Shown here: positions 11,352-37,108 of the stretch, piece by piece
How positions within the stretch are numbered: position 1 is the first letter of the stretch
How the letters are laid out: every line of letters starts with the position of its first letter
Source of the DNA: Kiritimatiellota bacterium
GTDB lineage: Bacteria > Verrucomicrobiota > Kiritimatiellia > JAAZAB01
NCBI GenBank assembly: GCA_026398415.1
Contig: JAPLSY010000087.1
Span: forward strand, 17,826-81,825
DNA length: 64,000 bases
Reading direction: 5' to 3'
Position numbers and translations under genes: made by a program
The notes under the pieces: model-generated
Told to the model about the DNA's origin: nothing
Database searches by the model: none
Seen by the model: the letters and a program-made list of their open reading frames with translations, nothing else

Positions 11352-11786
11352 ATGAGCTGGGTCCAGGAGTTCAAGCAGTTCGCCATGCGGGGTAATGTGA
11401 TGGATATGGCGATTGGTATCGTCATCGGCGCCGCGTTCGGCAAAATCGTATCTTCGCTGGTCGCGGATATCATGATGCCGCCTATCGGAAAACTGATGGG
11501 CAACGTGGATTTTTCCAGCCTGTTCATCGTGCTGGGCGCCGGCACTTATCCTTCGCTGGCGGCCGCCAAAGCGGCCGGCGCCGCGACACTTAATTACGGC
11601 CTCTTCATTAATACGGTTATCGATTTCATCATCGTGGCTTTCGCCATCTTTCTGCTTGTGAAAGGCGTGAATACCATGCACCGCAAGGAGGAAACCAAGG
11701 TCGCGCCGCCTATGCCGCCGACGCCTTCAGCGGAAGAAAAACTTCTGGCTGAAATCCGGGATCTGCTGAAACATAAAGCGGTCTGA
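11352..11786 (+). CDS. mscL: large-conductance mechanosensitive channel MscL
   Basis: AAGGAG RBS. Sequence [46 protein letters not shown] is the textbook MscL N-terminus. Length is 144 aa. Confidence 0.9.
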
Positions 11787-11815
11787 CCGCCCCGCGTTAA
11801 AACATAAGGAACGGA

Positions 11816-12460
11816 GTGACCCATTGTCCAAAGTGCGGAGTGCCTGTTGACCAGGGGACCCGATTCTGCCCGGCGTGTGGAACGCCGGCCGGCGGCGCCG
11901 GCACACCTCAGCCGCACCGGTCCGGGCGAGCGCTGAAATTGTGGGCCTTGGCCGGACTGGCGTGTTTTGCCTGCCTCATCATCATGGCAATCAATTTCAA
12001 CCTGTTCCTCCGGCTGGTGGCAATTGGCGGAACAGTCCTGTTTATGCTTTCAATCGCGATGATGTTCCTGACCTTCCGGAAAGCAAAAAAGATAGCCCCT
12101 GCCCCCCTGGTCATTTCAATAATCATGAGCCTGCTTACCCTGTGGGTTTATGCGCTCTTCCTCGGCATCCATTTCAGCGGCACGGTGAAATTCATGGGGC
12201 TCCTTTCCGGCATACTTGTAGGCATCGGGTGGGCGCTGACCACACCCGTCCGGAGCAACAACGGCATAGTTGAAAGGGAAGGAAACGTCTGGTACCTGGT
12301 CGTCTGGGGCCTGGTTTTCGCGATCAACCAGCTTGCCGCTGCCATCACCGGCCGGCCGCCGCACATTGCAATGGTGCTCCTGCTCCTCGGCACGGGGATC
12401 GTGCTCGGCACCAGCGGAACTTTCATCGCAAGGTATTACTCAATGAAGGCCAGGCATTGA
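11816..12460 (+). CDS. zinc-ribbon domain membrane protein (N-terminal CPKCG...RFCPACG ribbon + ~4 TM helices)
   Basis: GTG start with AAGGAACGGAG upstream. It lies 30 bp after mscL. A CxxCG-x8-RFCxxCG zinc ribbon is followed by hydrophobic helices. Its stop (TGA 12458-12460) is 1 nt from the next gene's ATG. Confidence 0.6.
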   Translation: MTHCPKCGVPVDQGTRFCPACGTPAGGAGTPQPHRSGRALKLWALAGLACFACLIIMAINFNLFLRLVAIGGTVLFMLSIAMMFLTFRKAKKIAPAPLVISIIMSLLTLWVYALFLGIHFSGTVKFMGLLSGILVGIGWALTTPVRSNNGIVEREGNVWYLVVWGLVFAINQLAAAITGRPPHIAMVLLLLGTGIVLGTSGTFIARYYSMKARH

Positions 12461-12461
12461 C

Positions 12462-15400
12462 ATGAAAAACAGGAAATCCGGACTGCGTTCCATGTGCGGA
12501 CGATTGCTGGCGGTAATATTTCTGGCATCGTTTGCCGCATTGCCGTCCAGCGCCGAATCTTTCCTGGTGCGCTGCGGAATAGTCGGTGAACACGGTGGTT
12601 ACTGGGTCAACTACGACGGAAATCCCAAGGGGAACGGCATCAAGTTCGGGGGGGACGACAAGCTTAATTATTACTCGACAACCTGTTTTGTGAAACCAGG
12701 CGAGACCGCACGGGTGCTTATAAACCCGTATGCCGAGAGCAAGCCGATAGCAGGGCGATTCGGAGCAGGTTCCTGCGATATTGTCTTTACGGTCAATAAC
12801 GCCGTGTACGAGGGCAAGCAAGATGATAAACGGCGGGGAGACGGGTGGAAATTGCCTGTCAAGCCCGGCTGGAACAAGGCCGTGATCAAGGTCGATGCCT
12901 ATGCATATAATAACGGCAATGTGCAGCACATCGGCTCAATGAGCCAGGAAGTATCCTTCTTTGTGTTCGTCATACAGGTCGAGCGGGCAGGGCAATTAAG
13001 GTCACCGTTTTCGGGTTATCCTGAAGTCAATTCGGGATACATGATGCCGTCGCATGATGGGACGGTCTATGCCTGCCTGACCTGCTTTACGAGGCCGCGC
13101 GGCGGCGGAAGCAAGTACGCCCTGGTGCACATGGAGCAGAGCGGCCGCATAATTAAGATTTACGCGATACATCCCGATGTTTCTTCCAGCCCGGTGGCAT
13201 ATGATTCGGAAGGCGGGCTGTATGTGAATGTCATGGAAAGGATAGTCAGGTTCAATCCGGACGGGTCTTTTGACAGGTCCATTGTTTCTTTTAATGAGAA
13301 CTATGAAGAAGAAATAACCGGCCGGCATCTGGAGGAAAAGGTTTATCCGACAACAGTTAATGGCAAGAAAACGCTGACGCCTGCATACCCGGACCTGCAT
13401 CCATCTGCGTCATGCAGCGAAATGGCAGTAAACGGCAAATATGTTTACCTGGTGGCAGCGCAAAGAAAGAATTCCAGTAATTACGATGATGTTCTTTGCC
13501 GGCTTGACCTTGAGTCCGGTAAAGTTGATGTTCTTTCGCAGGTAAATGTGCTGGACGGCCCTGTTCCTGGTCCCAACGGCCTGGTGTACATGCGCTCGAA
13601 ACCCGTCAACAAAGGAAAGTCGCCGCGTGGCACGACGATGTGTGATGTCCTTGGTTTTGATGCCAACGGGCGGCCGTCGAGCAGTTTCACAATAGCCAAT
13701 GCGGGATACGATCTTGACGGATTTGATGGAGCCGGCTGCTTATACAATAGCTGTGTTGTCTCGCAGGATGGACTCAGGGAGTCGACATATATACCGGAAG
13801 GACGCCTGAGGCATGTCCGTCTATCCTCGCCTACAAGATATATCGATCTTGTGGGAGGACAGGAAGTCAAGGATAACACGCTTCAAGCACAGGGCGGTCA
13901 CTGGATGGATGGCGGGTCTTATTATTGCTTATACCGAGAGGATGGTAATATTGCCAGGTTTACTTCATTGTTCCCGGGAACCGGCAGTGTGCCACAACCG
14001 CAGCCGGCAGTCGTCAAGCTTGGCAAGAAGGGATTCTTTTCCGGAAAGGATACAGGCGCAAAGGAATCACCTGCCGAGAAAAAGCCGGCAGTCAAATCTG
14101 ATCCTGGAAACAATGCGCCGGCGGATGAGGAAAATGCCGTGGAGCAGATTCCGTCTTCCATAGGCAACGAGTGGACTCCCGCCCAAACAGATAACACATC
14201 AAATGAAGGCGGGGCAAATGCTGATAATACGGCAGGTAATGCTGCCGGAGCGGCCGCGGCAGGCGCAGGCGTGGTCGGAGCGCTGGGCGCGTTCGGGGCA
14301 TACCTGATGATGAAGGCCAACAACATGGGCCTCAAGGATGTGATCGATGGCGTGAAGGACCTGTTTGAAACCGCGAGTGCGCCGGAGCCCGAAACGCCGC
14401 GGATCCTGTTCCAGGAGCCGCCGCATAAAGATGGCGAGGTTAACGACCGGGACGAGGTGTGGAGCGACGAGGATCGCGGCTGGGTGGGCAGGAATCTGTA
14501 CGAGCAGGAAAAAGAGCGAAGAAAGAACATTGACCTGGTCAACGAAGAAGCCCTGCGCACTTCGGACAAGTCGGTAAAGGAAGCCTTTGACCAGTGGCAG
14601 GAATCGAAGAAGAAACTGGAAGACATGCGAGCGTACCAGCTGAAGGAACACAAGATTGAAGCGATGAGGCTGGAACTCGATCGCAGGCAAAGAGAATCGG
14701 ACCGCGGTGCGAGCTGGACGGAAACCATAAGCGACAACCTGGAGAGGGACTGGAAGGAATTGAAGGAAGACTGCGGGAAACTCTACGATGCGGCCACCGA
14801 CGCCAACACCTACAGCAAGATCTACGAAGGAAGCAAAGGGCTGCGAGGCAAGATCGCCGAATACGCCTGGGAAGCGGGCTCGCATCCCTGGGATACCACC
14901 ATCAAGGTGTTTTCAGCCACAGGCAAGGTGCTCGGAGAGACGGCGGCCGCCGTGTATGAAAAGCCGGAACTGATGTTCATAGCCGCAGGCAAACTGATTG
15001 AGGCTGGAATCGTTGATCCGATACTTGCCGTGACCGACAAGAACAAGCGCTTGTCGGACAGATTGCTGGCCGTGGCCAAACTTGAAGTTGATTATGCCCT
15101 CATGCCGTGGGCAACAACGAAAGTGCTGGGCTTGGCCGGTTCGATCGGAAGCAGGGTGATTGAGACGGTTGGACAGACCGGCGGCAGGATAATGAAGGTG
15201 GCTGGCAAGGCTGGTGAAAACCTTGTGGAAGGCCTGCGTGGTCTCGGGCTTGGCGAAAAAGTTGCCGAAGAAGGCGCAGAACAGATAGCAGGCAAGGGAT
15301 TGAACCCGGCACTGAGTGCCACGGAAAAACGGCTGGCGTTCCTGGAGTCGAGCGATACCCTGGCCAGGAAGGCAAAAATGATGGAGAACCTGAACCAGGT

Positions 15401-16271
15401 GGCCGACGCGCCGGAAGGCATGCGCATGTTCATGTTGAACGAGGTGCGCAAGGAAGATCCTGCTATTTTCAACCTTGTCCGGAAGGAGTTACACCCTGAG
15501 ACGGCCGCGAAAATCGGCCAAACCCTCGAGGGGTTCAACCAGGAAGCATTGAGCAAGACATCGCAGGCGTTGACCAGTAACGGTTACGTGGTTAAAGAAG
15601 TTAAACTGGCCGGAAACGTCCGCGGCGCCGACTGTGATTCCTACTGGAAGGTAGTGAAAGACGGACGCGTACTGTCCGAGGCCGAGACGCGCAAGGTGGT
15701 GGACAGCGCTAGAAAGGGCGTGTTCCAGGATGAATTCGGCCACCTCCGTTCAACGCCGGATGAACTGGGGCACAAGACCATGAACGCCAGTCCCGAGAAG
15801 TTCGCGGCCGAACCAGGTGACCTTGGCATCCAGGAAGTGACTATAAAACCCAAGCCCGACGGGACACTTGACTTTGACCAGGCCGTGAAGGCCGGACCGG
15901 ATCCGGCCAGGACAAGGGGCGTCGCACAGGCCGAACTTATGTCCGACAAAGTGGCAACTCCGGAAGTGGTGCACTCTGTCGGAGAAGTTCTGAAGACAAA
16001 AACGGATCACTTGAAAGGACTCGGGAGGCCGGCGACCACCACAGAGTTGCGTGACATGGCCAGGGAAATAACTAAAACCGGCACTCGAACGGTGGACGCC
16101 CTGACGGAAAAGACCGGGGCATCAATGACCCCGGACTACCAGGCTCTGCGGAGGCAGCTGGCGCTGGTGGCGGCCGGGGATGCGAAGGGCGGGATACTGC
16201 CAACGCTGGATAAGATAGACGCGATTCTTGCGGGACAAATAAAAGTGCTTCAAAATGCAGTTGCCAGGTAA
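12462..16271 (+). CDS. giant bitopic hypothetical protein (1269 aa): signal peptide, ~560-aa extracytoplasmic domain, single TM (~aa 600-625), ~640-aa charged coiled-coil C-terminal domain
   Basis: Uninterrupted ORF, translationally coupled to the upstream zinc-ribbon gene. N-terminus MKNRKSGLRSMCGRLLAVIFLASFAALPSSAES is signal-like. Gly/Ala-rich hydrophobic segment AGAAAAGAGVVGALGAFGAYLMM. The C-terminal half is charged and coiled-coil (EQEKERRKNIDLVNEEALR...). No known family recognised. Confidence 0.65.
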   Translation: MKNRKSGLRSMCGRLLAVIFLASFAALPSSAESFLVRCGIVGEHGGYWVNYDGNPKGNGIKFGGDDKLNYYSTTCFVKPGETARVLINPYAESKPIAGRFGAGSCDIVFTVNNAVYEGKQDDKRRGDGWKLPVKPGWNKAVIKVDAYAYNNGNVQHIGSMSQEVSFFVFVIQVERAGQLRSPFSGYPEVNSGYMMPSHDGTVYACLTCFTRPRGGGSKYALVHMEQSGRIIKIYAIHPDVSSSPVAYDSEGGLYVNVMERIVRFNPDGSFDRSIVSFNENYEEEITGRHLEEKVYPTTVNGKKTLTPAYPDLHPSASCSEMAVNGKYVYLVAAQRKNSSNYDDVLCRLDLESGKVDVLSQVNVLDGPVPGPNGLVYMRSKPVNKGKSPRGTTMCDVLGFDANGRPSSSFTIANAGYDLDGFDGAGCLYNSCVVSQDGLRESTYIPEGRLRHVRLSSPTRYIDLVGGQEVKDNTLQAQGGHWMDGGSYYCLYREDGNIARFTSLFPGTGSVPQPQPAVVKLGKKGFFSGKDTGAKESPAEKKPAVKSDPGNNAPADEENAVEQIPSSIGNEWTPAQTDNTSNEGGANADNTAGNAAGAAAAGAGVVGALGAFGAYLMMKANNMGLKDVIDGVKDLFETASAPEPETPRILFQEPPHKDGEVNDRDEVWSDEDRGWVGRNLYEQEKERRKNIDLVNEEALRTSDKSVKEAFDQWQESKKKLEDMRAYQLKEHKIEAMRLELDRRQRESDRGASWTETISDNLERDWKELKEDCGKLYDAATDANTYSKIYEGSKGLRGKIAEYAWEAGSHPWDTTIKVFSATGKVLGETAAAVYEKPELMFIAAGKLIEAGIVDPILAVTDKNKRLSDRLLAVAKLEVDYALMPWATTKVLGLAGSIGSRVIETVGQTGGRIMKVAGKAGENLVEGLRGLGLGEKVAEEGAEQIAGKGLNPALSATEKRLAFLESSDTLARKAKMMENLNQVADAPEGMRMFMLNEVRKEDPAIFNLVRKELHPETAAKIGQTLEGFNQEALSKTSQALTSNGYVVKEVKLAGNVRGADCDSYWKVVKDGRVLSEAETRKVVDSARKGVFQDEFGHLRSTPDELGHKTMNASPEKFAAEPGDLGIQEVTIKPKPDGTLDFDQAVKAGPDPARTRGVAQAELMSDKVATPEVVHSVGEVLKTKTDHLKGLGRPATTTELRDMAREITKTGTRTVDALTEKTGASMTPDYQALRRQLALVAAGDAKGGILPTLDKIDAILAGQIKVLQNAVAR

Positions 16272-16325
16272 CATGGTCGGCAGGTGGAAGGAAACAATCC
16301 AGCAGACTGCCGGGGAGGATGAGCG

Positions 16326-17417
16326 ATGTTTAGAATTGGCATGACAATATCAGGGTTTCTTGGAAGTTGCGAGAAGGCCGGGCTCAAACCGTCGGCGTTA
16401 TCTCCGGCAAAATTACTCCTGGATCAGTTCGGAAAGGGAATGGAACCCGATCGGAGCGATTTCGCCTTACCCGTGCCGGCTGAGGAGTTTGCGAAGACCA
16501 TGCAAACACTGCTCCAGCCGGATCATGTCATTGCCGCGAGATATGGCGGGCATATGGCTGATCCGCAGGAAGTGCGCTTTGCTTTCGCAAGGATCGAAAC
16601 CGCCGCACATATTGCGGCGATCTCGCCACTGGCGCCTGCCAGGGTATTCATTGAGTCTTTTGACGGCACGGACGGATGGATGGAATGGATCCTGGACCGT
16701 GTGGATCCTCTTAGACTGGCCGCAAGTAGAGGTCAGGCCGCAACGGGTAAACTGACCTGGGTTCAACTCCTGTATTTTCTCCATTCCGTCGACATGTACA
16801 GGAGATGCTACTACCGGTCGATGCTGGATCAGGCGCCGGTGGACGAGTTTGAGTTCTCGGAGACGGAATATCTTGAGGATCTACAGAATTCTGTTTTGTC
16901 GGCGGACTGGCGCTGGCTTGTGCCTTGCCTGATGAGCATGGTTCCCAGGGCCGTGCCTGATTCGGTTCTTGGACTGAAAAACCAGTTCGACTGTTTGAAA
17001 GAATACGGGGTGATAACCGGATCCAAATCGGGGCTCATGAAATTCACCGACCACGGGCAGAATCTCGGGCTGGAATTCATGCTTCAATGGGTGTCCGCGC
17101 TCGGGCTGGAGATATGCAGGGGAGACGGGAAGCAGGCGGAGGAAAGCAGGCTTTTCGTATTGGGCACGAACAAGGGGGCGCACCTGTTTGAATTTGAGAA
17201 GAATGAAATCAGCTACACGGTCGCAGGCGGGCAAGGAGTAAAGGAGTGCCTGAATAGACTTCTGAACAGGTTGGGCCCGCTGCCCAAAGCCGCGGCCGTG
17301 AAGCAATCCACACCGCCGCCCCTTGAATCTGTGCCCGACAGACAATTCTGTTCGCAGTGCGGAAAGCCGCTCGCGCTAAAGGGCCGCTTCTGCCCGGCCT
17401 GCGGTGCCGCGGCCTGA
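16326..17417 (+). CDS. hypothetical cytoplasmic protein with C-terminal zinc ribbon (CSQCGKPLALKGRFCPACG)
   Basis: GGGGAGGA RBS 6 nt upstream. 54 bp after the giant gene. The C-terminal CxxCG-x7-RFCxxCG motif matches the ribbons of neighbouring proteins. Confidence 0.55.
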   Translation: MFRIGMTISGFLGSCEKAGLKPSALSPAKLLLDQFGKGMEPDRSDFALPVPAEEFAKTMQTLLQPDHVIAARYGGHMADPQEVRFAFARIETAAHIAAISPLAPARVFIESFDGTDGWMEWILDRVDPLRLAASRGQAATGKLTWVQLLYFLHSVDMYRRCYYRSMLDQAPVDEFEFSETEYLEDLQNSVLSADWRWLVPCLMSMVPRAVPDSVLGLKNQFDCLKEYGVITGSKSGLMKFTDHGQNLGLEFMLQWVSALGLEICRGDGKQAEESRLFVLGTNKGAHLFEFEKNEISYTVAGGQGVKECLNRLLNRLGPLPKAAAVKQSTPPPLESVPDRQFCSQCGKPLALKGRFCPACGAAA

Positions 17418-18587
17418 TTATTCGGTCGATTTCTCTGTCGCGGTGAACCGAAAAGTGCCGATCAGGTGGACCATCACAAAATAGTATTTCTTGAACAGCT
17501 TCTTCGGCGCGGTATAGCTGATCATGTAATAATACGGCTCACGGTCGATTATCGCCTGCATCTGCTGGAATGCCTGTCCACTTGGCATCTCAAAACGGGC
17601 GACCATGTAAAAAGCCTTTTTCCCGCTCAAGTCGCCCTGGTCGGTCTTGTCCAGCTCGAACTCATCCATGGTTTTCCATTGCGACAGTATTTTATCGGCT
17701 TCGCTTCTGACCGTGCTGCCGGGTTTCTTGTTGATGATCTGGAAATTAACCGTAGTGTCATATTCTTCGGTGCCCTTGGCCCCGCAAAAGATATGCGCGT
17801 TGTCCTTGACCTCCGATTCCCAGTGCGCCGGAAGCTCGGCAACAAACCCGAACTTCTTATTCACGTACTTATCGTACTTGAGCCCCGCGGGGCCGGCAGC
17901 GGCCTCTTCGCCCGATTTAGGATTCCAATCCTTCAGGGGCGACCCTGCCGGATAATCCTGCTTATCCATTCCGGAATTATTATTTGCGGTTCCTGACCCC
18001 ACCCCGGCGGAAACGTCCTTCCCGGGTAGCTTGAGGTCAGGCAGTTCCGCCCCCGGCTTGGGACTAACCGGGATATCTGTGTTCACCAAACCATTAATAT
18101 CCCGCTTCTTGCCGTCGCCGGATGACCCGATGATGGCAAGGATAATGATTATGCCGAGGACACCTAACGCAACCAGCACAAGCGGCAGGCATCCCTTCTT
18201 CCGCGCAGGCTTCCCCGCTGAAATCGCATCCTTCACCGGCGCCCCGCATCCAGCACAGAATTTGGCGCCCGGCTTGATTTCCGCTCCGCAGGCGGAACAC
18301 TTGTTTACGGACGGCTGCCCGCAGGGCGCCCCACAGCTGCCACAGAACCTGGCGCCAGGCTTAAGCGCGGCTCCGCATTTCGAGCAGGCAAGGGCATGGC
18401 CGGAGGTATGCCCCGTTACCGCCGCCACGGCATTCTTGATGTCCTGTTTGGTTACAAGCTCCTTGTCCGCATTGTAAACGCCATCCATCAGGAATTCCGC
18501 AGGCATGTCCTTCGCACTCGTGTAAGTCCCCGTCTTGGTGCCAAACCTGAGGATTCCGAGTTTTCTAAGAATATCGATAAAACTCAT
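17418..18587 (-). CDS. double-zinc-ribbon membrane protein with C-terminal extracytoplasmic (PsbP/DcrB-like?) domain
   Basis: The N-terminal cytoplasmic part carries two tandem ribbons (CSKCGAALKPGARFCGSCGAP; CSACGAEIKPGAKFCAGCGAP). One TM follows (LPLVLVALGVLGIIIILAIIG), then a ~220-aa C-terminal domain. Its stop abuts the stop of the convergent gene at 17417 with zero spacer. Confidence 0.6.
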   Translation of the reverse strand: MSFIDILRKLGILRFGTKTGTYTSAKDMPAEFLMDGVYNADKELVTKQDIKNAVAAVTGHTSGHALACSKCGAALKPGARFCGSCGAPCGQPSVNKCSACGAEIKPGAKFCAGCGAPVKDAISAGKPARKKGCLPLVLVALGVLGIIIILAIIGSSGDGKKRDINGLVNTDIPVSPKPGAELPDLKLPGKDVSAGVGSGTANNNSGMDKQDYPAGSPLKDWNPKSGEEAAAGPAGLKYDKYVNKKFGFVAELPAHWESEVKDNAHIFCGAKGTEEYDTTVNFQIINKKPGSTVRSEADKILSQWKTMDEFELDKTDQGDLSGKKAFYMVARFEMPSGQAFQQMQAIIDREPYYYMISYTAPKKLFKKYYFVMVHLIGTFRFTATEKSTE

Positions 18588-20611
18588 ACCTGCTCCTTTG
18601 CCTGCAATGCGATTAAATCAGGACAATTGGCGCAGCATCATCGCCAAACGACGATGCCACGTTCTTAATTTCTGCATGCGGTTTGCTGCGCCAGAAGCTT
18701 CTTCAACCCCGCCAGGCATTTCTCGGCGGAGCCTGGCCGGTTTTGAAATAATTACACTTCACACACTAAGCCGACAGCACTCTCTTTAATAGCCTCCTCT
18801 TTTCTTATCGTTTGTCAAGATGGCAATGGATTTTCAACCGGCGGAACTTGGCAAACTGACGAACGAGATAATATCCCGGTTGACCCTTTGCCGGGACGGG
18901 TATAGCATTAAACTTTAAAGGAATAATGCCGGCTAAGTTCGTACTGCGTTGTTTCTAAACTGGTGTCATTGTTCGGAAAACAAAGCGACGTAATATTAGT
19001 GCTTTGTTACCAGAGGAGGGCGTTATGCGGCCGCGGATGCTGCCAATCATTGTGGGCGCCGCCGGGTGGCGGGCGCTTGCCGCACCGGGACTATCCCTCC
19101 TGCTCACCGTGCCCCTTTTGGCCCAGACCATGAACCCGCGGTATTATAACCCCGGCACGCCTACGCTCACGGATATCTGGGTCGACCCACTTAACGGAAA
19201 CGACGGCCATTCCGGTGCGAACCGCAGTCAGGCCTTGCGCAGTCTGGAAGCCGCGTGGAACAGTATCCCCAACGACGCCACACTCACAACGACAGGCTAT
19301 CGCATCCAGTTGGTCGCAGGCATCTACACAGCCGACTTGATTCCGAATTACATGGAACGGCATTACGGCACGTATGCCTGCCCGGTAATCATTCAAGCTG
19401 TCGATGGCCAGGGCACGGCCACGCTGTTGCATGACCTGAATATCTTCGACTGCCACTATCTGTACCTTGTTGATTTTAACATTACCGCGGGGGCCAACAA
19501 CCTGATCCACGGCGAGGCCTGCACCAATCTACTGATGCACGGCCTGACCCTGCAGGGCGATACCAATGCAACGCAGGAAACCATCAAGATGAATCAGTGC
19601 CAGTATATTTACCTGGAAGACAGCGATGTCTCCGGCGCCTTTTGGATGGCCGTGGACTTCTTCGCCGTCCAACATGGCCACATTGTGGGCAACCGCCTGC
19701 ACAATGCCGACTGGGTCGCTTATCTCAAGGGCGGCTCGGCCTATTTCCGAATTGAAGCCAACGAGATCTATGACGGCGGCACAATCGGGTTCACGGCCGG
19801 CCAGGGCTCCGGTTTCGAATTTATGGCATCTCCGTGGCTACACTATGAAGCATCGGACATTAAATTCATTAATAACGTCGTCCACGACATCGACGGCGCC
19901 GGCATGGGTGTTAACGGCGGCTACAACATCCTCCTGGCGCATAACACCCTCTTCCGTGTCGGCCGTCGTTCACATGCGATAGAAGTCGTCTTCGGTGAAC
20001 GCAGTTGCGATGGCAACACAGGGCGCTGCGCCGAACTACTGGCCGCCGGCGGTTGGGGCACGGTGAACGCTGGCGTCTCTGAGCCGATCCCCAATTGCCA
20101 TGTCTATATCTACAACAACATCCTTTATAACCCCGCCGGCTACCGGAGCGCAGACAGCCACTTGGCGGTCTATGCCCCGCGTACTCCCTCCATCGGCTCA
20201 AACATCCCTTCCCCGGCGGAGACGGATACCGACCTGCGCTTTCGCGGTAACATCTTCTGGAACGGGCCGCCGGATCTTGCCCTGGGCATCGGTGACAGCG
20301 ACCAAGGCGGCCAGCCATCAAACCCCACCTGCAACCCAGCGCAATTCCTCGCGGATAACACCGTCAACAGCCTTGAACCACAACTCATAAATCCGACCGG
20401 CGCAGACTTCCGGCCGCTCATCGGCGGCAACGTATTTTCAACGGCGACGTATGCCATTCCGGATTTCACGGGAACAGATCGCCCGGCCCCGCCGGCGGAG
20501 CCGCAAGGCAATCTGCTCAACACCGTTGAGCGCGATTATTACGGCTATCCCCGTTTATCCTCCAGCCCGCCGGGCGCCTTTGCCCAAGCCAATACAAACA
20601 CAACGCCCAAT

Positions 20612-21305
20612 GACTACGATGGCGACGGCAAGTCTGACCTGGCCGTGTACCGTAACGGCAATTGGGCCATCCAAACGATGGCGGGTAACGTTATCGCTTA
20701 CGGCTGGGGCGAGCCGGGCTGGATACCAGTGTCAGGGGATTATGACGGCGATGGCAAGTCCGACCTGGCCGTGTACCGTGACGGCAATTGGGCCATCCAA
20801 ACGATGACGGGTAGCGTTATCGCTGACAGCTGGGGCGAGCCGGGCTGGATACCAGTGTCAGGGGATTATGATGGCGACGGCAAGTCCGACCTGGCCGTGT
20901 ACCGTGACGGCAATTGGGCCATCTGTACGATGGTGGGTAGCATTATCGCTCGTGACTGGGGCGAGCCGGGCTGGATACCAGTGCCAGGGGATTATGATGG
21001 TGGGTAGCATTATCGCTCGTGACTGGGGCGAGCCGGGCTGGATACCAGTGCCAGGGGATTATGATGGCGACGGCAAGTCCGACCTGGCCGTGTACCGTGA
21101 CGGCAATTGGGCCATTCACACGATGGCGGGTAGCATTATCGCTGGCGGCTGGGGCGAGCCGGGCTGGACTCCCGTGTCAGGGGATTATGATGGCGACGGC
21201 AAGTTTGACCTGGCCGTGTACCGTGACGGCAATTGGGCCATCCAAACGATGGCGGGTAACATGATCGCTGACAGCTGGGGCGAGCCGGGCTGGACTCCCG
21301 TGCCG
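20612..21305 (+). repeat. tandem ~120-bp (40-aa) FG-GAP-like coding repeats, ~5.7 units, ~90% nt identity
   Basis: Repeated gattatgatggcgacggcaagtccgacctggccgtgtaccgtgacggcaattgggccatc... units are directly visible. Confidence 0.85.
20934..21067 (+). repeat. perfect 67-bp direct tandem duplication (2 x tgggtagcattatcgctcgtgactggggcgagccgggctggataccagtgccaggggattatgatgg)
   Basis: Exact character-by-character match of 20934-21000 and 21001-21067. 67 is not a multiple of 3, so the duplication causes a +1 frameshift and an immediate TAG. Confidence 0.9.
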
Positions 21306-21799
21306 TAACGCCTGAGTATGCGTGTCATTCTGGAAGCTAATATGCGCCGGTAAGTACAATGTTTGGCGGACAAGATTCTAGGTAAGGTCTCCAGTGATTT
21401 TCACCACGCCGGTTTAATTGTCGCTTGAACTACAGAATTATCTCCCCACGCCTGTCTGATCTGGCTGGCAACACCCTCCACAAAATATTTAAGAATGCCT
21501 AAATAACTCCAAAACGTTCCAAAGGCATTCCTATCACCCAAATTCGCCAAAAGGTTCAAAATTAAAGTCGGTTTGGTCGCCAACGCTGATAAAAATATTG
21601 GCCATCCAAGCCGTTCCGACATGTTTTATGCATGATTATTCTCGTCAAGCCATCGATAATCCAGTATTGACTTGAAGGTTCCCTTAAGCTTGGAAAACTA
21701 TGGCTTCAGAATACTAAAGCTTAAAAATTGATCGCAAAATGGCGCAGCCATCGCAAAACTTATTGCTAAATGGTCGCCCGCCTGAAAACAGAGGAAAGA

Positions 21800-22051
21800 T
21801 CAAAAATGCTTTTGAGCAAAGGCACGGCCGGAATGAGATTTGAGGTAGTTCTCAAAGTCAAGCGCCTGTTGCCTATCGGAGAATGCAATATATGTTTTGA
21901 TTTGCCAAGGGCGGAATTTGGCCGTGTGTGGACATTCTCCATCGTTGTGCTGACGAATGCGGTCAGTCACATTTTCCGTAAAACCGGTATAGTGCTTTCC
22001 GGGATGGGAAAGGCTTCCAAGCATATAAACGCAATAGAAGCGCGTTTCCAT
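21800..22051 (-). CDS. GIY-YIG nuclease superfamily small protein
   Basis: FYCVYMLGS...HYTGFTENVTDRIRQHNDG...RPWQIKTYIAFSDRQQALDFENYLK matches the GIY-YIG (URI) motifs, as in the YhbQ/UPF0213 family. Such genes are typically found beside tRNA genes. Confidence 0.7.
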   Translation of the reverse strand: METRFYCVYMLGSLSHPGKHYTGFTENVTDRIRQHNDGECPHTAKFRPWQIKTYIAFSDRQQALDFENYLKSHSGRAFAQKHF

Positions 22052-22243
22052 GATTGGCGTTTAGTCTGACTCGGCTTCGTTACCAATATGACTTAGCCAA
22101 AACTGGCGTCCGGCTTCGTCTGGAGACCACGCCGTGACTGGCGTGCCAAGGCGTAGCTCGCAGACGGTTTATGAGTAAATAGCCCGGCTTCGTTAAGAAC
22201 TTCGCCGTGGCAGGCTTCGCTCTTGTTGACACTGCGAGCGAAG

Positions 22244-22316
22244 CCTGGAGCGGAGGAGATTCGAACTCCCGACCCCCACGTTGCGAACGTGGTGCTCTAC
22301 CAACTGAGCTACCGCC
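22244..22316 (-). tRNA. tRNA-Ala (anticodon CGC)
   Basis: The reverse complement folds as a cloverleaf. Acceptor stem GGGGCGG/CCGCTCC has the G3:U70 Ala identity pair and an A73 discriminator. D-loop AGTTGGTA. Anticodon loop TTCGCAA. T-loop TTCGAAT. CCA is not encoded. Confidence 0.85.
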
Positions 22317-22463
22317 CCATTTTGAAGAAGACACCAGAGGTCAGACGCCAGCCTGCCTACCATAGCGCTCGGGCAACGGCAGACGACAAGAGATCAGACA
22401 TCGAAAGTCGAGGTCAGGGAAAACCTCAACCATCGCAAGCCGAACAAGTTCACGCCAACAACT

Positions 22464-22598
22464 TTACGGCGCTGGTGATGGCGCCAGGCTGGATTGCTTG
22501 GCCATCTGCTTCATTTTTTTCTTCTGTTGTTTTTCCTGGATCGAAAGTTTCGGCTTGTTGTTACGACCGGTATTGCCTTTATCCATGCTTTTTCCCAT
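22464..22598 (-). CDS. small lysine-rich hypothetical protein (44 aa, MGKSMDKGNTGRNNKPKLSIQEKQQKKKMKQMAKQSSLAPSPAP)
   Basis: A perfect TAAGGAGG RBS sits 6 nt upstream of the ATG, between the tRNA and the DMT gene. No family recognised. Confidence 0.45.
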   Translation of the reverse strand: MGKSMDKGNTGRNNKPKLSIQEKQQKKKMKQMAKQSSLAPSPAP

Positions 22599-22683
22599 GA
22601 CGCGCCTCCTTATTTCAAGAATCTCCAAGGAACTTGCTTTTCTGACCGGCAATTATCCTCGCCGGGGTTCGTCTGTCAAAACA

Positions 22684-23610
22684 TTATTTTTGTTCGCTCG
22701 CTCCCGCATTAGGACCGCGGGAGGCGAAGAGATGACCGCTCACGGTAATCATCAAGCCGCCCAAAATGAGCGCACTGCCCAGTAGCATGAATCGGTTGAT
22801 GTGCTCGCCTAACACCAGGACGGCCAGCACAGAGGCCATCACAGGCTTGAGAAAAAACATCATTGAGGCCTGGAAAGCCGTGCCATGGCCAAGCCCGTAA
22901 TAATAGAGCCCGTAAGCCAGTGCGGTGCCCAGGAGCGCCACATACAGGGTCGGCGCCCAGGCGTTCGCCAAGCCGGCCAAGCCTTGGTGAGCCGTTACCA
23001 CCAACGCGAACGGCAGCACCATCAGACTGCCGAACAGCGCGGAAAAACCCGTGAGCACAAATACGCCATAGCGGATAATTACACGCCGGACGATACAGAC
23101 ACTGAGCGCAAACAACATGGCCGCCATCAGCATGAGACTGAGCGCCGCCAGGGATTGGCGCGTGAAGGCGCCCGATTCCCAGGCGAAACAGGCCACCCCC
23201 ACGATGCCGGTCACCATGGCCGCCCATTTCGGCACGCTCCAGGATTCGCGGTTGACAAACCGCGCAAAGAGCAGGACAAAAATCGGGTTGGCACTGAACA
23301 CCACGGCGCAGGAAGCCGCCTTTTCAAATACCAGGATTGCGGCATGGAACAGCACGAGCGCGAGCGCAAACCCAATGCCCCCATTGAGCGCAAACACGCC
23401 ATAATCGCGCGAACCCAGGGGTACCGACCGCTTGCGCAGAGCCGGCGCCGCCAGGGCCAGCAGGATGATCCCGGTCAGGAAAAAGCGGATGAAGACCATT
23501 TGCAGGGGATGAACCCGCGCCCCGACAAGCTTGCTGGCCACCTCAACCGTGCTGAACAAGCCTACACCGGCAAATAGCGCCAGAAACCCAATGACTTTTT
23601 CATGACGCAT
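22684..23610 (-). CDS. DMT-superfamily (EamA-like) transporter
   Basis: ~10 hydrophobic helices in an EamA-type duplicated pattern. Start chosen at the internal ATG (MRHEKVIGFLALFAG), because the longer ORF adds non-hydrophobic residues. Confidence 0.65.
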   Translation of the reverse strand: MRHEKVIGFLALFAGVGLFSTVEVASKLVGARVHPLQMVFIRFFLTGIILLALAAPALRKRSVPLGSRDYGVFALNGGIGFALALVLFHAAILVFEKAASCAVVFSANPIFVLLFARFVNRESWSVPKWAAMVTGIVGVACFAWESGAFTRQSLAALSLMLMAAMLFALSVCIVRRVIIRYGVFVLTGFSALFGSLMVLPFALVVTAHQGLAGLANAWAPTLYVALLGTALAYGLYYYGLGHGTAFQASMMFFLKPVMASVLAVLVLGEHINRFMLLGSALILGGLMITVSGHLFASRGPNAGASEQK

Positions 23611-23768
23611 AGCAGGAACCCGATTGGGAGGGAAGGCCGGATGACAGACGACAGACAACGGACGACAGACCTTCCTTCGTCCAAGCGCTCCGGAGGGCAA
23701 GCGACAGATTTATCCCGCATTGTGCGCGGGAGGGCGGACGGCCGAAGACACGACAGAAAAGAGACCTA

Positions 23769-25175
23769 CTACGCTTGTGAAGGCGGCTTATAAGATTTCT
23801 CGATCTTGGCGGCCACATCCTTGTAGCCGATATCCACCTGGTAGATTTCTTTGTAATATTGATTCACCGCCGTCGCGATATCGCCCTGGGCTTCCAAGGT
23901 TTCACCCAACTGGTAGAAAATATCCTTCTTCAACTCGTCCATTTCGGTCAATTCGGCGGCGGCTTTCTCCAGTTGATCGCGCGCCATATCGAACTGCTGT
24001 TTCTGCTTGAAACACCGCGCCATGTAATACAGCGAACGCACCCGGTTGCGCGGATTGCGCTGGGCCATCTGGAACTGCTGGATGGCTTCGTTCAACATGT
24101 TGCGTTCGAACAGAAGCACACCATAATCATACCGCAGGGGCAAATCGTTGGGATACCGCTCGATGCGCGCCTCGGTGTTCTTGAACACAAACTCATTTTT
24201 GGCGGCTTCCTTGGTTTTCACCCCGGCCAAATCGCCGTTTTCACGGCACTGGGCAATCTCAAAATCGAATTGCTTCAATTGCACCGTCGCCAGCATCTGA
24301 TCAAGTTGCGGGTCCGCCGCACCGCCGAGGCGCTTGGCTTCATCAATCGTGTGCTTGGCGTCGTCAAACCGCGTCGCCTGCATATACAGATTAGCCAGGG
24401 CGCGGCGGTAATTGACGTTTTCAGGCTCGTGCTTAACGCGCCCTTCCAGGTCATGGATCAGCAATTCCGCACTTTTGCCGTCCTTAACCGCCATGGCTTC
24501 TTTCTCCAGCATGGACGCTTCCTTGACGTCCTTGATAACGCTCCGGTAGCCTCCCCCACCCTTGGCCGCCTCGTCCCAGCCGCCCTTGGCCATTGTTTCG
24601 CGGGCCATGGCATTCTTCAGCATCTGCATGGCCTCGCCATCGTGGGGCTTCAGGTTGACAACGGCCTCGAAACATTCCTTGGCATCCTGGGGCTGGTCCA
24701 TTTGCATATACAGGTTGCCCAGCCAAGCCAGGAACTCGGCATCCTGCTGAAAATATTCGCGCACCATGGCCAGCGTCAGGGCGGCCACTTCCGGCATCTC
24801 CGCCGCCTCGGCCATCTTGCACAGGAAACGGATAAAGGTCGGATTCAGGGGATCTTTGCGAATAAGTTCTTCGCCCAGGCGCAGGGCTTCTTGCGACTTC
24901 CCGGCGCGCATGGCCAGCCAGCCTTTGATCAATTGTGGCGCGGCGCTGATCGTGGTCATGACGCGTGCCGTTTGGCCGCTACCGGCTTCATTGAACTGCT
25001 TCAGGGCGGTCGCCCGCAGAAATTTCCGCGCCCGCAAAAAATGAGGTTCGATATCCAGCGCCGCCATGAACATATCCATTGCATAAGGCAGGTTGCCATG
25101 CTCCGTGGCCACCAGACCCTTGTCAAACAACTCACGTGCCCGCTTGGGCACATTGGCTTCAGATAGATCCGCCAT
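23769..25175 (-). CDS. tetratricopeptide-repeat (TPR) protein
   Basis: AGGAG RBS. Repeated 34-aa A/L/Y-rich helical units (e.g. ALANLYMQATRFDDAKHTIDEA, YYMARCFKQKQQFDMARDQLEKA). Confidence 0.65.
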   Translation of the reverse strand: MADLSEANVPKRARELFDKGLVATEHGNLPYAMDMFMAALDIEPHFLRARKFLRATALKQFNEAGSGQTARVMTTISAAPQLIKGWLAMRAGKSQEALRLGEELIRKDPLNPTFIRFLCKMAEAAEMPEVAALTLAMVREYFQQDAEFLAWLGNLYMQMDQPQDAKECFEAVVNLKPHDGEAMQMLKNAMARETMAKGGWDEAAKGGGGYRSVIKDVKEASMLEKEAMAVKDGKSAELLIHDLEGRVKHEPENVNYRRALANLYMQATRFDDAKHTIDEAKRLGGAADPQLDQMLATVQLKQFDFEIAQCRENGDLAGVKTKEAAKNEFVFKNTEARIERYPNDLPLRYDYGVLLFERNMLNEAIQQFQMAQRNPRNRVRSLYYMARCFKQKQQFDMARDQLEKAAAELTEMDELKKDIFYQLGETLEAQGDIATAVNQYYKEIYQVDIGYKDVAAKIEKSYKPPSQA

Positions 25176-25223
25176 GGAAAAAACTCCTGTTTTTTTCTAT
25201 TCTTTAAGATTACACTTACGCAC

Positions 25224-26324
25224 TTGTGGATGTCAATAGGCAATGAACACCAAAATCCATGTAATATGAACTTACCGTCTTATTACAGGTTGAAAAAATC
25301 TGCTGCCCACCGGGCATTCGATGCCAGCCGAGCATTCGGCGCCGGCCGAGCATTCGGCGCCGGCCTGCTTGTAGGCGTCTGGCTGGCTGCGGAGGCGGCT
25401 TCTGCGGCCAGTTTCATCATGGGCGATGCCGTCTCATTGTCCCAGTTATCCCATCGTTACAACTTCCTCGCATACACCGTCCAGGGCAAGAACCTCGAAC
25501 TGAGAACCAAGTTCAATACTTTCACCTTCGAAGGCGATACCCGTAAGGTAGAATTCAACAACATCCTCGTCTGGTTGAATGCGCCGGTCGCCCGGCATTG
25601 GGGCTCATGGACCATTCGGGACCTGGATGTGGATAAAACCATTTTACCGCTGATCCATCCCTCTCAGGCGCTCAAATCGGAAAGCTGGCGTCTGGTGATC
25701 CTGGATCCGGGCCATGGCGGCCAAGACCCCGGTGCCTCAGATCTGCGCCGAAATCTGGAAGAAAAACGCATTACCCTGGAACTGGCCCAGCACGTCCGAA
25801 CCATCCTGCAGAAATACAATGTGGACGCGCGCCTGACGCGCGGCAGCGACCAAACCACCGATCTGGACCAGCGGTGCCTTTTGGCCAACCGATTTGGAGC
25901 CGACTTGTTCGTCAGCATTCACTTGAATGCAGCGGCAAATTCGGAATCTTCCGGCATCCAGACCCACATCCTGCCACCGGCAGGCTGTCCCATCACTGAG
26001 AGCGCTTTTGTCAGCTCCCGTGACCGCGTGGCGTTTCCCGGCAACCGTCACGACGAAGCCAATATGGTCCTGGGCTATTACCTCCAAAAAAGTCTGATCA
26101 AGTACACCCGCTTGGAAGATCGCGGCGTACGGCGCTCCCGGTTCTACGTGATCCGCAATGTGGCTTGCCCAGCCGCCTTGGTGGAATGCGGGTTTATATC
26201 GAGCCGCAACGACAGGACCAAAATAATGACTTCGGCCTATCGGGATAATGTTGTCCGGGGCATTACCGAAGGCATCCTGACCTACCTCAATATGGTTAAA
26301 CGCGCCCAGGCGCTTAATCCCTGA
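25224..26324 (+). CDS. N-acetylmuramoyl-L-alanine amidase (Amidase_3 family)
   Basis: Motifs LVILDPGHGGQDPGA and DLFVSIHLNAAANS, plus the C-terminal GFISS motif. N-terminal signal/anchor. Start is uncertain (alternative ATG at 25266). Confidence 0.75.
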   Translation: MWMSIGNEHQNPCNMNLPSYYRLKKSAAHRAFDASRAFGAGRAFGAGLLVGVWLAAEAASAASFIMGDAVSLSQLSHRYNFLAYTVQGKNLELRTKFNTFTFEGDTRKVEFNNILVWLNAPVARHWGSWTIRDLDVDKTILPLIHPSQALKSESWRLVILDPGHGGQDPGASDLRRNLEEKRITLELAQHVRTILQKYNVDARLTRGSDQTTDLDQRCLLANRFGADLFVSIHLNAAANSESSGIQTHILPPAGCPITESAFVSSRDRVAFPGNRHDEANMVLGYYLQKSLIKYTRLEDRGVRRSRFYVIRNVACPAALVECGFISSRNDRTKIMTSAYRDNVVRGITEGILTYLNMVKRAQALNP

Positions 26325-30378: not shown

Positions 30379-32007
30379 ATGGATTCTATGATTTTCCATG
30401 GCATTTATGTAACCGTGATCGTGTTGCTCTTGTTCGGTGTATCGATCTTTGCCCATGAACTGGGCCATTTCATCACCGCTCGTCTGTTCGGCATGGTCGT
30501 GGAAGTATTTTCGTTAGGCTTCGGACCATCCATCTGGAAAAAGAAATATCGCGGTACCCTTTACAAGATCGGCATTTTCCCCATTGGCGGGTATGTGGCC
30601 CTGCCCCAGATGGATCCGACCGATGCCTTGCCGACCGTAAAGCCGAAACAAACCGATGCGACCACAGGAACATCGGCCCAGGAACCGGCGACTCCGCCGC
30701 CTAAACCCTGGTCGCCTATGGCGCCGCCGGAGGCGGGTAAACCCTGGTCGCCTATGGCGCCGCCGGAGGCGGGTAAACCCTGGTCGCCTATGGCGCCGCC
30801 GGAGGCGGGTAAACCCTGGTCGCCTATGGCGCCGCCGGAGGCGGGTAAACCCCTGCCACCGGTAGCGCCCTGGAAAAAAATCATTGTGGCGGCGGCCGGC
30901 GCCGCCGGTAATATGGTCCTGGCCGCGATCATCGCCTGGATTGTCTATTGGGGCGGCAAGCCTTCCACGCCGGGCGAGCGTTGCGCCGTTATTGGATTTG
31001 TGGACACCAATTCGGTTGCCTACACCAGCGGCCTGCGCCTCGGCGATGAAATTCTTGCCGTAAACGATGTCCCGGTTGCAACGTGGAACGATGTCATCCA
31101 GGAAAATACACGCTTTGAAACTGTCCGCTTCGCCGTCCGAACACCGGCCGGCACCAATATGATCACGGTGCCGACGGAAAAGAACGCGCTGGGTTTCCGG
31201 ATGGTGGATGGCCTGCGCGAAATCACGCTATGCAAGGTCATGGCCGTGGAGACAGAGTCCAGCGCGGCCCAGGCCGGCGTTCATCCGGAAGACGTGATTT
31301 TAAGGTTCAACGACGTAACCGTGCTCAGCATCGAGCACCTGGTCACGCTCGTGTCCGCGCGGCCGGACCAGCCCACCCCGCTCGCCGTGGAACGCGGAGG
31401 GCAAATCCTGGCCCTCACCGTCTCGCCGCAGCTTGACTCGTCCCTAGGGCGCGCGCGGATCGGCATCCGCTTCGACCCGATGGCTGTGGATTACGACAAA
31501 GTGGTTCACATCCCGCCCAGCGTTCAACTGAAGGGCCATGCCACCATGATCCTCAGGGTGGTCCGCGCACTCCTGACCCCGAAGGAAGCCAAACACACGT
31601 CCGAAGGACTCGGCGGTCCGCCCATGATTCTTTACATGATCCAGGATGCCGTGCGCAAAGGCATCATGATCGCCCTGTGGTTCATGTGCTTCCTTAACGT
31701 GAACCTGGCCATCATTAACCTCCTTCCGATCCCGGTGCTCGACGGGGGTCACATCATGTTTTCCCTGTGGGAACTGGTCACCCGGCGTCCAATTCACCCG
31801 AAACTGATTGCCTGGATTTACCAGGTTTTCTTTTTCCTGTTTATCGCGGTATTCATTCTGCTCTCGGGGCGGGATTTTCAGCGACTCTATCAACTCCACC
31901 AGCTATCGAAAACGGTTGCCCGTCAGATGGCCGTCACCAACGTCGTCACGAACGCGGTTGCCGGCACCGCTCCGAGCGCGGCTACGAACGAACCCGGAAC
32001 GCCGTAA
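30379..32007 (+). CDS. rseP: RIP metalloprotease RseP (site-2 protease) with an inserted proline-rich tandem repeat
   Basis: HELGHF zinc motif in TM1. PDZ region. C-terminal LNLLPIPVLDGGH motif. GAGGA RBS. A 4 x KPWSPMAPPEAG insert is present (see repeat feature). Confidence 0.85.
   Translation: MDSMIFHGIYVTVIVLLLFGVSIFAHELGHFITARLFGMVVEVFSLGFGPSIWKKKYRGTLYKIGIFPIGGYVALPQMDPTDALPTVKPKQTDATTGTSAQEPATPPPKPWSPMAPPEAGKPWSPMAPPEAGKPWSPMAPPEAGKPWSPMAPPEAGKPLPPVAPWKKIIVAAAGAAGNMVLAAIIAWIVYWGGKPSTPGERCAVIGFVDTNSVAYTSGLRLGDEILAVNDVPVATWNDVIQENTRFETVRFAVRTPAGTNMITVPTEKNALGFRMVDGLREITLCKVMAVETESSAAQAGVHPEDVILRFNDVTVLSIEHLVTLVSARPDQPTPLAVERGGQILALTVSPQLDSSLGRARIGIRFDPMAVDYDKVVHIPPSVQLKGHATMILRVVRALLTPKEAKHTSEGLGGPPMILYMIQDAVRKGIMIALWFMCFLNVNLAIINLLPIPVLDGGHIMFSLWELVTRRPIHPKLIAWIYQVFFFLFIAVFILLSGRDFQRLYQLHQLSKTVARQMAVTNVVTNAVAGTAPSAATNEPGTP
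30703..30850 (+). repeat. 4 perfect tandem copies of a 36-bp unit (aaaccctggtcgcctatggcgccgccggaggcgggt; KPWSPMAPPEAG) plus a partial fifth, inside rseP
   Basis: Direct inspection. In-frame, so it does not disrupt the ORF. Confidence 0.9.
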
Positions 32008-36100: not shown

Positions 36101-37108
36101 TCATTTTTTCTTCAGCGCCAGGCGCACCTGGCTCCGCCAGAAATTCTCGTAGGCAATGCCCTCCGCCGCCAATGACCGTGCCAGACCTGCCTCACGCGAT
36201 GTATCGGGATTGGGATTCACCTCCAGGATGTACGGGCGCGCGCGCGCATCCAGCCGGAAATCCACGCGCGCATAGCCGCGCAACTTCAATACCCGATAGG
36301 CCTGCAGGGCAAAGCGCGTCAGACGACGCGCCAAAGCCGGCAAGACTGGCGCCGGGCATACCGGTACCGTGCCCCGGTAGGTCGGATGCGCGGCCTGCCA
36401 CTTGGCGTCGTAGCCCACAATGCGCGGCAAGCCGGCGGGATAGTGCTGAAACAAAATCTCCGAAAGCGGCAGGACGCGCGGCGCGGACTCCTCCACAATG
36501 GCCGCATTGATTTCCCGGCCATCCACAAAACTCTCGACCAGCGCCGGTTGGTCATAGGCGGCCAGCACACGGGCCACCTGCTTGCGCAAGGCCATCCGGG
36601 TCCGTACCACGGAATGGGGGTAAATCCCGATGCTGGCGTCCTCACAGTTGGGCTTCACGATCAGCGGAAATCGAGCCGCGGCGGGCAGTTGACGCTCATC
36701 CTCGACGAGCCAGCTCGGCAGGGTCGGCAGTCCACAGGCCTTCAGAATGGCATTGGTCCTGAATTTGTCGTGACATTGAAACAGCGCGTGCGAACTGTTG
36801 CCGGTAAAGGGAATGTCCAGCAGTTCCAGCAGGCCCGCCACCTGCGCCTCGTAGGCCGAATGACCGCGGAATCCCTCGCACAGGTTGACAATTACCGCGG
36901 GACGTAGGCGGCGGATCGGCGCTACAATTTCTTCAATGCAATTGCGAACGGGAATCCACTGGAGACGATACCCGAAAGACAAGAGCGCCGCCCCCGCCTG
37001 CCGGGCGGCAGTTTCCAGGGCACGCTCGGAGAGCGTTTCCTTCGGCCGCACCAAGCGCGGCTCGCAGACATTGTATAAAATACCTACGCGTATCGAACGG
37101 GCATTCAT
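36101..37108 (-). CDS. D-alanine--D-alanine ligase-family ATP-grasp protein (paralog 2)
   Basis: N-domain IRVGILYN...VIVNLCEGFRG...LLELLDIPFTGNSS parallels Ddl. C-terminal ATP-grasp motifs are present (EVNPNPD). ATGA overlap with the upstream paralog. Confidence 0.7.
   Translation of the reverse strand: MNARSIRVGILYNVCEPRLVRPKETLSERALETAARQAGAALLSFGYRLQWIPVRNCIEEIVAPIRRLRPAVIVNLCEGFRGHSAYEAQVAGLLELLDIPFTGNSSHALFQCHDKFRTNAILKACGLPTLPSWLVEDERQLPAAARFPLIVKPNCEDASIGIYPHSVVRTRMALRKQVARVLAAYDQPALVESFVDGREINAAIVEESAPRVLPLSEILFQHYPAGLPRIVGYDAKWQAAHPTYRGTVPVCPAPVLPALARRLTRFALQAYRVLKLRGYARVDFRLDARARPYILEVNPNPDTSREAGLARSLAAEGIAYENFWRSQVRLALKKK

Follow-up and report, generated by a model that had tools for sequence, protein, structure and literature searches.

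The gene described here lies in a 64,000-nucleotide stretch of a Kiritimatiellota metagenome-assembled genome (MAG), hereafter the window, and encodes a protein in which a signal-peptide-like segment is followed by a beta-helix domain and an array of FG-GAP repeats (Table 1). The long open reading frame (ORF) opens with a TTG at position 19004, has its first ATG at 19025, and ends at the TAG at 21005-21007. An earlier note on this DNA had described a large beta-helix/FG-GAP gene, and the domain searches agree: PF13229 (Beta_helix), PF01839 (FG-GAP), and PF13517 (FG-GAP_3) all score above their Pfam cutoffs, the first marginally (27.4 bits, cutoff of 25.9) and the two repeat models with 75.7 bits (cutoff of 22.1) and 54.4 bits (cutoff of 26.9), respectively. 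The neighboring genes encode zinc-ribbon proteins, an EamA transporter, a TPR protein, and an amidase_3 protein, all unrelated, and we saw no functional link between the gene and its genomic neighbors.

Table 1. Features of the beta-helix/FG-GAP gene and of the duplication within it (positions are those of the window)
Feature	Position(s)	Strand	Description or basis
Signal-peptide-like segment	19025..19126	+	MRPRMLPIIVGAAGWRALAAPGLSLLLTVPLLAQ, hydrophobic; putative, read by eye
Right-handed parallel beta-helix	19160..20584	+	PF13229, AF2, Foldseek; family uncharacterized
FG-GAP array, 5 units of 126 nt (42 aa)	20612..21308	+	TRF, PF01839, PF13517, AF2, Foldseek
Unit 1 (U1)	20612-20737	+	Full 126-nt unit
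Unit 2 (U2)	20738-20863	+	Full 126-nt unit
Unit 3 (U3)	20864-20989	+	Full 126-nt unit
Unit 4 (U4)	20990-21000 and 21068-21182	+	Broken by the extra copy
Unit 5 (U5)	21183-21308	+	TAA included
GATGG microhomology	20929..20933	+	Pentamer also ends each copy (20996-21000, 21063-21067)
Duplication, copy 1	20934..21000	+	Second half of unit 3 and first 11 nt of unit 4
Duplication, copy 2 (extra DNA)	21001..21067	+	Its removal restores the 738-aa ORF
Truncated CDS as present	19025..21007	+	660 aa and TAG
Premature TAG	21005..21007	+	Product of the frameshift
Untranslated rest of gene	21008..21308	+	Rest of copy 2 (repeated blade-3 part), rest of unit 4, unit 5

From the signal-like N terminus, we infer that the protein is secreted; residues 1 to 33 are modeled by AlphaFold with a pLDDT of <50. 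The beta-helix domain is modeled by AF2 as a stack of short strands (pLDDT of 85.5, pTM of 0.87), and all of its Foldseek matches in the PDB are beta-helix enzymes, at TM scores of 0.3 to 0.4 and 9 to 14% identity. The best-matching folds are those of GH136 lacto-N-biosidases, PL6 chondroitinase B and alginate lyases, PL9 pectate lyase, and mannuronan epimerases, a set that suggests, by predicted fold, a polysaccharide-active enzyme. Membership in GH136, PL6, or PL9 is not supported, as the similarity is confined to the level of the fold: no PDB sequence matched the domain with an E value of <0.7, nor did any NCBIfam model. The roughly 500 N-terminal residues are strongly conserved across phyla, with about 80 invariant columns in an alignment with 29 homologues at 42 to 91% identity.

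The FG-GAP array consists of five units with a period of 126 nt (42 aa) according to both TRF and unit alignment, rather than the 120 bp claimed earlier, and whole units are 79 to 94% identical in pairwise comparisons. When the array is repaired to five uninterrupted units, AF2 yields a confident model (pLDDT of 95.3, pTM of 0.89) with a strand pattern that repeats with each 42-aa unit, and Foldseek matches the repaired domain to beta-propellers, including virginiamycin B lyase, the integrin-like PVL lectin, and Vibrio cholerae Bap1 (TMq of about 0.6). Each unit is thus modeled as one blade of a beta-propeller. Pairwise comparison of the units of the window's array gives 69 nonsynonymous and 30 synonymous differences; the nonsynonymous ones cluster at eight codons of the unit (21, 24, 26, 27, 30, 31, 38, and 41), and the DxDxDG loop and the core aromatic residues are invariant across units.

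The C-terminal part of the protein differs sharply among relatives. The closest relative (90% amino acid and 91.6% nucleotide identity over the beta-helix) has one FG-GAP unit and stops there, the next ones carry an unrelated C-terminal domain, and relatives at 42 to 50% identity bear about seven diverged FG-GAP units. Elsewhere in the window, a search for the unit found no donor copy; it is present in this array only. Judged from these sequence comparisons, the array is young and dynamic in this lineage, and in-register gain of units clearly occurs.

Within the array lies a duplication of a second kind. Direct comparison confirms the earlier observation that positions 20934-21000 and 21001-21067 are perfect back-to-back copies: the two 67-nt segments are 100% identical, head to tail, with nothing between them, and TRF reports a period of 67 over 20929-21067 with 2.1 copies and 100% matches. 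The segment begins with TGGGTAGC and ends with GATTATGATGG, such that the junction between the copies reads GATTATGATGG followed directly by TGGGTAGC or, in a longer form, GGGGATTATGATGG followed directly by TGGGTAGCATT; the normal exit specific to unit 3 reads GTGCCAGGGGATTATGATGG followed by CGACGGC. Taken as a 19-mer, the junction (GATTATGATGGTGGGTAGC) has no second occurrence in the window with up to 3 mismatches. The identity between the copies continues leftward for 5 nt (GATGG, 20929-20933) and rightward for 0 nt. Because the corresponding 67 nt in the remaining full units (units 1, 2, and 4), compared in the same register, agree with the duplicated segment at only 58 or 59 of 67 positions, the perfect 67/67 match represents a separate event, much younger than the array itself.

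Since 67 equals 3 × 22 + 1, the extra copy shifts the reading frame, and translation ends five bases into copy 2, after "...WIPVPGDYDGG." The ORF stops where the earlier note had placed the premature TAG, and its further claim that the downstream repeats remain open to 21308 also holds, in that the other frame is open from 20868 to the TAA at 21306-21308 and encodes regular FG-GAP repeats from the junction onward. Removing one copy in silico yields a single continuous ORF to 21308 that specifies 738 aa with five regular units. The truncated product retains the signal-peptide-like segment, the complete beta-helix, and three of the five blades, and blades 4 and 5 are missing from it; it is 100% identical to the 660-aa MCX6993996.1, deposited as [quoted passage not shown] and encoded on a contig of 107,459 nt.

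Propellers require all of their blades for closure, and the C-terminal module of the truncated product is therefore probably unable to close and nonfunctional, while its beta-helix may still fold. Past the stop, units 4 and 5 have kept all conserved repeat residues and have acquired no further stop or indel. Because the copies are identical and units 4 and 5 have not decayed, the event is either very recent or not real. The earlier suggestion of a very recent pseudogenization thus stands in its first part, on the identical copies, the GATGG at the junction, and the undecayed units, and fails in its second: "pseudogene" is too strong a term because the gene still encodes the entire beta-helix and three blades.

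Two ways in which the distal units might still be translated were considered and rejected. Programmed +1 ribosomal frameshifting at GGG-TAG was assessed by eye; the Shine-Dalgarno-like AGGGGA precedes the GGG codon by 10 nt, which is not a prfB-like spacing, and the product would bear an aberrant 22-aa partial blade, leaving this route unsupported. Reinitiation at the in-frame ATG ATG (20994-20999) would give a 104-aa fragment lacking a signal peptide, and no feature was found to support it.

We looked for the array in independent assemblies and sequencing runs. With the repaired protein as the query, GTDB representative genomes returned relatives at ≤78% identity only and no second copy of the array; exact patterns from the 3′ flank and from the unit 3 core gave 0 matches in JGI metagenomes; and in a collection of 5.8 billion proteins, the sole 100% match was the deposited truncated protein, again with no second copy of the array. 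An exact look-up of the truncated protein returned nothing on record. Exact look-ups of neighboring proteins, however, located the strain, at 100% identity, in Logan contigs from three run series (SRA runs SRR20698638, SRR20698650, and SRR20698651, together with SRR25046532 and SRR25046533; ENA runs ERR15302166, ERR15302169, ERR15302179, ERR15302197, ERR15302223, and ERR15302224). When compared with the window, 9 of 12 such contigs are 100% identical over 2.4 to 9.3 kb, and two others have one mismatch each. At the array, the k=31 contigs of the strain end at 20659-20684 on the left and at 21275 on the right, and a k=31 graph simulated from the window's array first branches where the Logan contigs end. 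The outer units of the array are therefore corroborated in independent samples and the Logan contigs are silent on the junction; no junction-spanning independent assembly was found among GTDB genomes, JGI metagenomes, the protein collection, and Logan contigs.

One rival explanation is an assembly artifact. In that event, the true genome would contain one 67-nt copy and an intact 738-aa gene, and two contig ends, or a contig and a gap-filling patch, overlapping by 67 to 72 nt within the array would have been joined end to end without being merged; a long-read polishing step could have had the same outcome. The source is a MAG, the lesion falls inside a 126-nt array whose units share exact stretches of 35 to 64 nt at which short-k graphs break, and removal of the copy leaves a perfectly regular five-unit gene without any other defect. 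Errors of this type are documented: Chen et al. 2020 describe in MAGs duplicated sequence at unmerged joins, wrong repeat numbers, artificial concatenation of identical sequence, and local errors in repeat-bearing genes (PMC7111523).

Several properties of the junction nevertheless argue against an artifact. The junction is novel sequence, for which a pure de Bruijn assembly should have needed supporting reads, and the join contains no Ns, none of which were found anywhere in the window. The 5-nt microhomology at the end points would have to be a coincidence of 0.6 to 2.5%. To our knowledge, none of the metagenome assemblers in common use has a default final k of 67 to 72 nt. The 64 kb contain no second duplication of this kind; the sole further perfect tandem repeat, 36 nt in 4.2 copies, is in frame and lies in another gene, so there is no pattern of join artifacts.

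The specific form of the artifact also matters. Once the array is repaired, the core of unit 3 is seen to be flanked by an exact 64-nt repeat with a spacing of 126 nt, and an assembler that took this loop wrongly would insert 126 nt rather than 67. Together with the novel junction sequence, this spacing makes a plain de Bruijn loop or collapse unlikely as the simple explanation. The earlier note's alternative of an assembly artifact in a repeat is accordingly narrowed to the joining or merging of overlapping ends, which we regard as an unlikely, though still substantial, possibility.

On balance, we consider the duplication probably real. The account that we prefer, at only slightly better than an even chance, is a one-off duplication by microhomology-mediated slippage that occurred very recently and removed two of the five blades. 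GATGG (usually as GATGGCG) occurs twice in each 126-nt unit, once at the unit boundary (GAT TAT GAT GGC) and once in the middle (ACG ATG GCG), such that GATGG sites within the array lie 59 and 67 nt from one another; the duplicated segment starts immediately after the mid-unit GATGG in unit 3 and extends through the GATGG at the boundary of units 3 and 4. During replication, a nascent strand that had reached the end of the GATGG between units 3 and 4 would have re-paired with the GATGG in the middle of unit 3, 67 nt upstream, and the 67-nt stretch would then have been copied again, giving the tandem duplication by microhomology-mediated slippage or template switching.

The pentamer at the end points favors such a templated slip over a blunt abutment of ends, to a moderate degree. 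Microhomology of at least 5 nt for a 67-nt duplication is available at 2.5% of the positions in the array and at 0.6% of those in the window. The argument is suggestive and, at most, of moderate weight because longer out-of-register microhomologies exist in the array, namely, of 8 nt (at 30/96 nt) and 7 nt (at 59/67 nt). Inverted repeats were sought in 20850-21150 and none were found, which speaks against hairpin-promoted slippage. A further consideration counts against the slippage account: for a frameshift allele to be the population consensus would require drift, hitchhiking, or a tolerated loss. On the slippage account, the assembly would record a one-off spontaneous mutation captured in that consensus.

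The same end sequence could have been reached in two steps, through an in-register 126-nt duplication of unit 3 followed by a 59-nt deletion between GATGGs. The arithmetic fits (126 − 59 = 67), GATGG recurs at the 59/67-nt spacing in every unit, and in-register gain of units is clear in the lineage; yet this route calls for two recent events in place of one, with no substitutions between them, and is the less parsimonious. It predicts the same present sequence as a one-step slip, and we consider it very improbable.

Returning to the one-step slip, the copies it leaves are perfect and adjacent, and exact undoing by a reverse slip is therefore possible. Precise reversion would be expected to be RecA-independent and far more frequent than formation. 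In tetA assays in Escherichia coli, template switching that does not depend on RecA frequently removes one copy of a 101-bp tandem repeat (PMC8378479).

The earlier note listed, as one of three alternatives among which it did not choose, on/off switching (phase variation) of a surface protein by slipped-strand or recombinational events. Under that proposal, the duplication would be a reversible contingency switch for the propeller module, cells would gain and lose the 67-nt copy at useful frequencies, and the population would mix full-length and truncated alleles. Precisely revertible, perfect tandem duplication within an ORF is the mechanism found at cap3A: according to the passage of PMC11163986 that cites Waite et al. 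2001, spontaneous tandem duplications in this type 3 capsule gene of Streptococcus pneumoniae switch the capsule off and on. High-frequency deletion is documented for tandem repeats of about 100 bp (PMC8378479), and the target is secreted and probably faces the surface or a substrate, with a fast-evolving array (1 unit in the closest relative versus 5 here, with unit differences concentrated in 8 codons).

The locus itself offers little else in favor of a switch. Over 18.4 to 21.8 kb, TRF found no short-unit (1- to 10-nt) tract, and in the gene it returned only the periods 126 and 67 (with multiples); the locus thus lacks the hypermutable tract of a classical simple-sequence-repeat contingency locus. 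There is likewise no invertible element, and there are no inverted repeats or hairpins to promote slippage. We have a single instance, with no second example among the relatives and no other allele in the databases searched. Formation through a 5-nt microhomology should, moreover, be rare, and therefore only the "off to on" direction would be fast. On/off switching is thus not borne out; in a gene lacking a simple-sequence tract, what is left is the generic revertibility of any perfect tandem duplication.

A population that mixes both forms through such a switch seems to us quite improbable. That the duplication is one state of a reversible switch of the propeller, a putative binding module, in this uncultured and widely sampled Kiritimatiellota strain is a shade less credible again, and the same low standing applies to its joint extension, in which the 126-nt array would be a hot spot for both in-register changes (in blade number) and out-of-register changes (on/off). 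Were both alleles to turn up in the reads, the locus would be a rare example from nature of a gene switched by duplication in a nonpathogen.

Setting the switch aside, the locus presents either a well-known kind of mutation in an uncharacterized, ordinary secreted repeat protein or an assembly error. It bears on annotation, since the 660-aa MCX6993996.1 is probably a shortened form of a 738-aa protein consisting of a beta-helix and a five-blade propeller. With one blade in the nearest relative and five here, plus an out-of-register slip, the gene would also provide a clean, datable case of the evolution of a young coding array.

Among known systems, the N-terminal 500 residues resemble the beta-helix enzymes of CAZy (GH136, PL6, PL9, and mannuronan C-5 epimerases) in predicted fold. 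The domain is likewise secreted, to judge from its putative signal, and its homologues bear variable C-terminal binding or anchoring modules. It differs from those enzymes in having no sequence-level relationship to them, the similarity being limited to TM scores of 0.3 to 0.4.

The C-terminal module shares with the FG-GAP/VCBS propellers of integrin alpha, the Psathyrella velutina lectin (PVL), and Vibrio cholerae Bap1 its Pfam matches and a DxDxDG loop in every unit, and its AF2 model has four-stranded blades like those of propellers in the PDB. Propellers of this class usually comprise seven or eight diverged blades, whereas here there are only five, which are short (42 aa) and nearly identical, with TM scores of about 0.6 to the solved structures. 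Similarly, the gene has in common with surface proteins that vary by in-frame minisatellites (VNTRs) a young coding array whose copy number changes between close relatives (1 versus 5). In classic VNTR variation, whole units change and the frame is kept; the 67-nt event described here, by contrast, is out of register, and the frame is lost.

The likeness to pneumococcal cap3A lies in a perfect tandem duplication within an ORF that cuts off the product, exact loss of one copy restoring it. At cap3A, however, switching has been demonstrated experimentally, with many independent duplications and measured reversion, in the account that PMC11163986 gives in citing Waite et al. 2001, whereas here there is one static instance, known from a metagenome assembly alone. 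The targets differ as well: here a C-terminal binding module is hit instead of an essential pathway step, and only the two C-terminal blades are lost. Were the switch to be true, cap3A-type switching would extend to an environmental bacterium of the PVC group. Closest to the account that we prefer are the 101-bp repeats of the E. coli tetA assays (PMC8378479); the mechanism here is read from the junction, and both cases involve perfect head-to-tail copies with a short direct repeat, here GATGG, at their end points.

The gene's nearest relative, on contig L005, is 91.6% identical to it in nucleotide sequence over the beta-helix and carries one FG-GAP unit (L005 2104-2238), versus five in the window (20612-21308); the array thus arose by recent amplification of units. 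The genes that flank the L005 homologue are not those that flank the window's copy, and the gene thus lies in a different context. In pairwise comparisons of these five units, most differences are non-synonymous (69, versus 30 synonymous), and the differences are concentrated at eight codons of the 42-codon unit, with scaffold residues unchanged in all five; this pattern would fit a blade of constant structure that bears variable loops.

Three separate run series (SRR206986xx, ERR153022xx, and SRR250465xx) have yielded Logan contigs of the window's strain. When L006 to L017, the twelve such contigs, were compared with window positions 11418-20684 and 21275-25826, nine were 100% identical to the window across 2.4 to 9.3 kb, and two more had one mismatch each. 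Where they reach the FG-GAP array, the contigs stop at the positions where its k=31 graph is predicted to branch. Judged from these sequences, the strain is a widespread, near-clonal population.

Upstream of the gene lies a convergent pair of genes whose ends are back to back and whose products both contain zinc-ribbon or double-zinc-ribbon motifs; another zinc-ribbon protein is encoded farther upstream (see the table below), and the 1,269-amino-acid ORF between it and the pair has no Pfam match.

Zinc-ribbon genes upstream of the beta-helix and FG-GAP gene (window coordinates)
Feature	Position	Strand	Remark
Zinc-ribbon gene	16326..17417	+	zinc-ribbon / double-zinc-ribbon motif
Zinc-ribbon gene	17418..18587	-	zinc-ribbon / double-zinc-ribbon motif
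Zinc-ribbon protein	about 11816..12460		called in Logan loci

Elsewhere in the window, ORF 30379..32007 (+), which encodes an RseP-like site-2 protease with Peptidase_M50 and PDZ domains, contains a perfect, in-frame tandem repeat of 36 nt (4.2 copies; 30702-30852) whose product is KPWSPMAPPEAG four times over. The repeat is inserted after the first membrane segment, which bears the HExxH motif, and before the next one. Because its copies are 100% identical to each other, it is either very young or of uncertain copy number in the assembly. Neighboring ORFs of similar size occur on the minus strand at 36101-38172 and at 47595-49510; in each region, the adjacent ORFs have in common stretches that are 71 to 76% identical, at spacings of 1,031 nt and 923 nt, and are probably tandem paralogues.

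The beta-helix domain itself (19160-20584) is an uncharacterized, highly conserved module. Across its homologues (P0002 to P0120), the C-terminal partners are many different modules that vary across phyla; among them are DUF4215 cysteine-rich repeats, Ig-like domains, T9SS sorting domains, SLH, and FG-GAP. Megabase contigs in assemblies of the green algae Chlorella sorokiniana, C. ohadii, and Micractinium encode the domain too, at 42 to 47% identity, which hints at its transfer between bacteria and algae.
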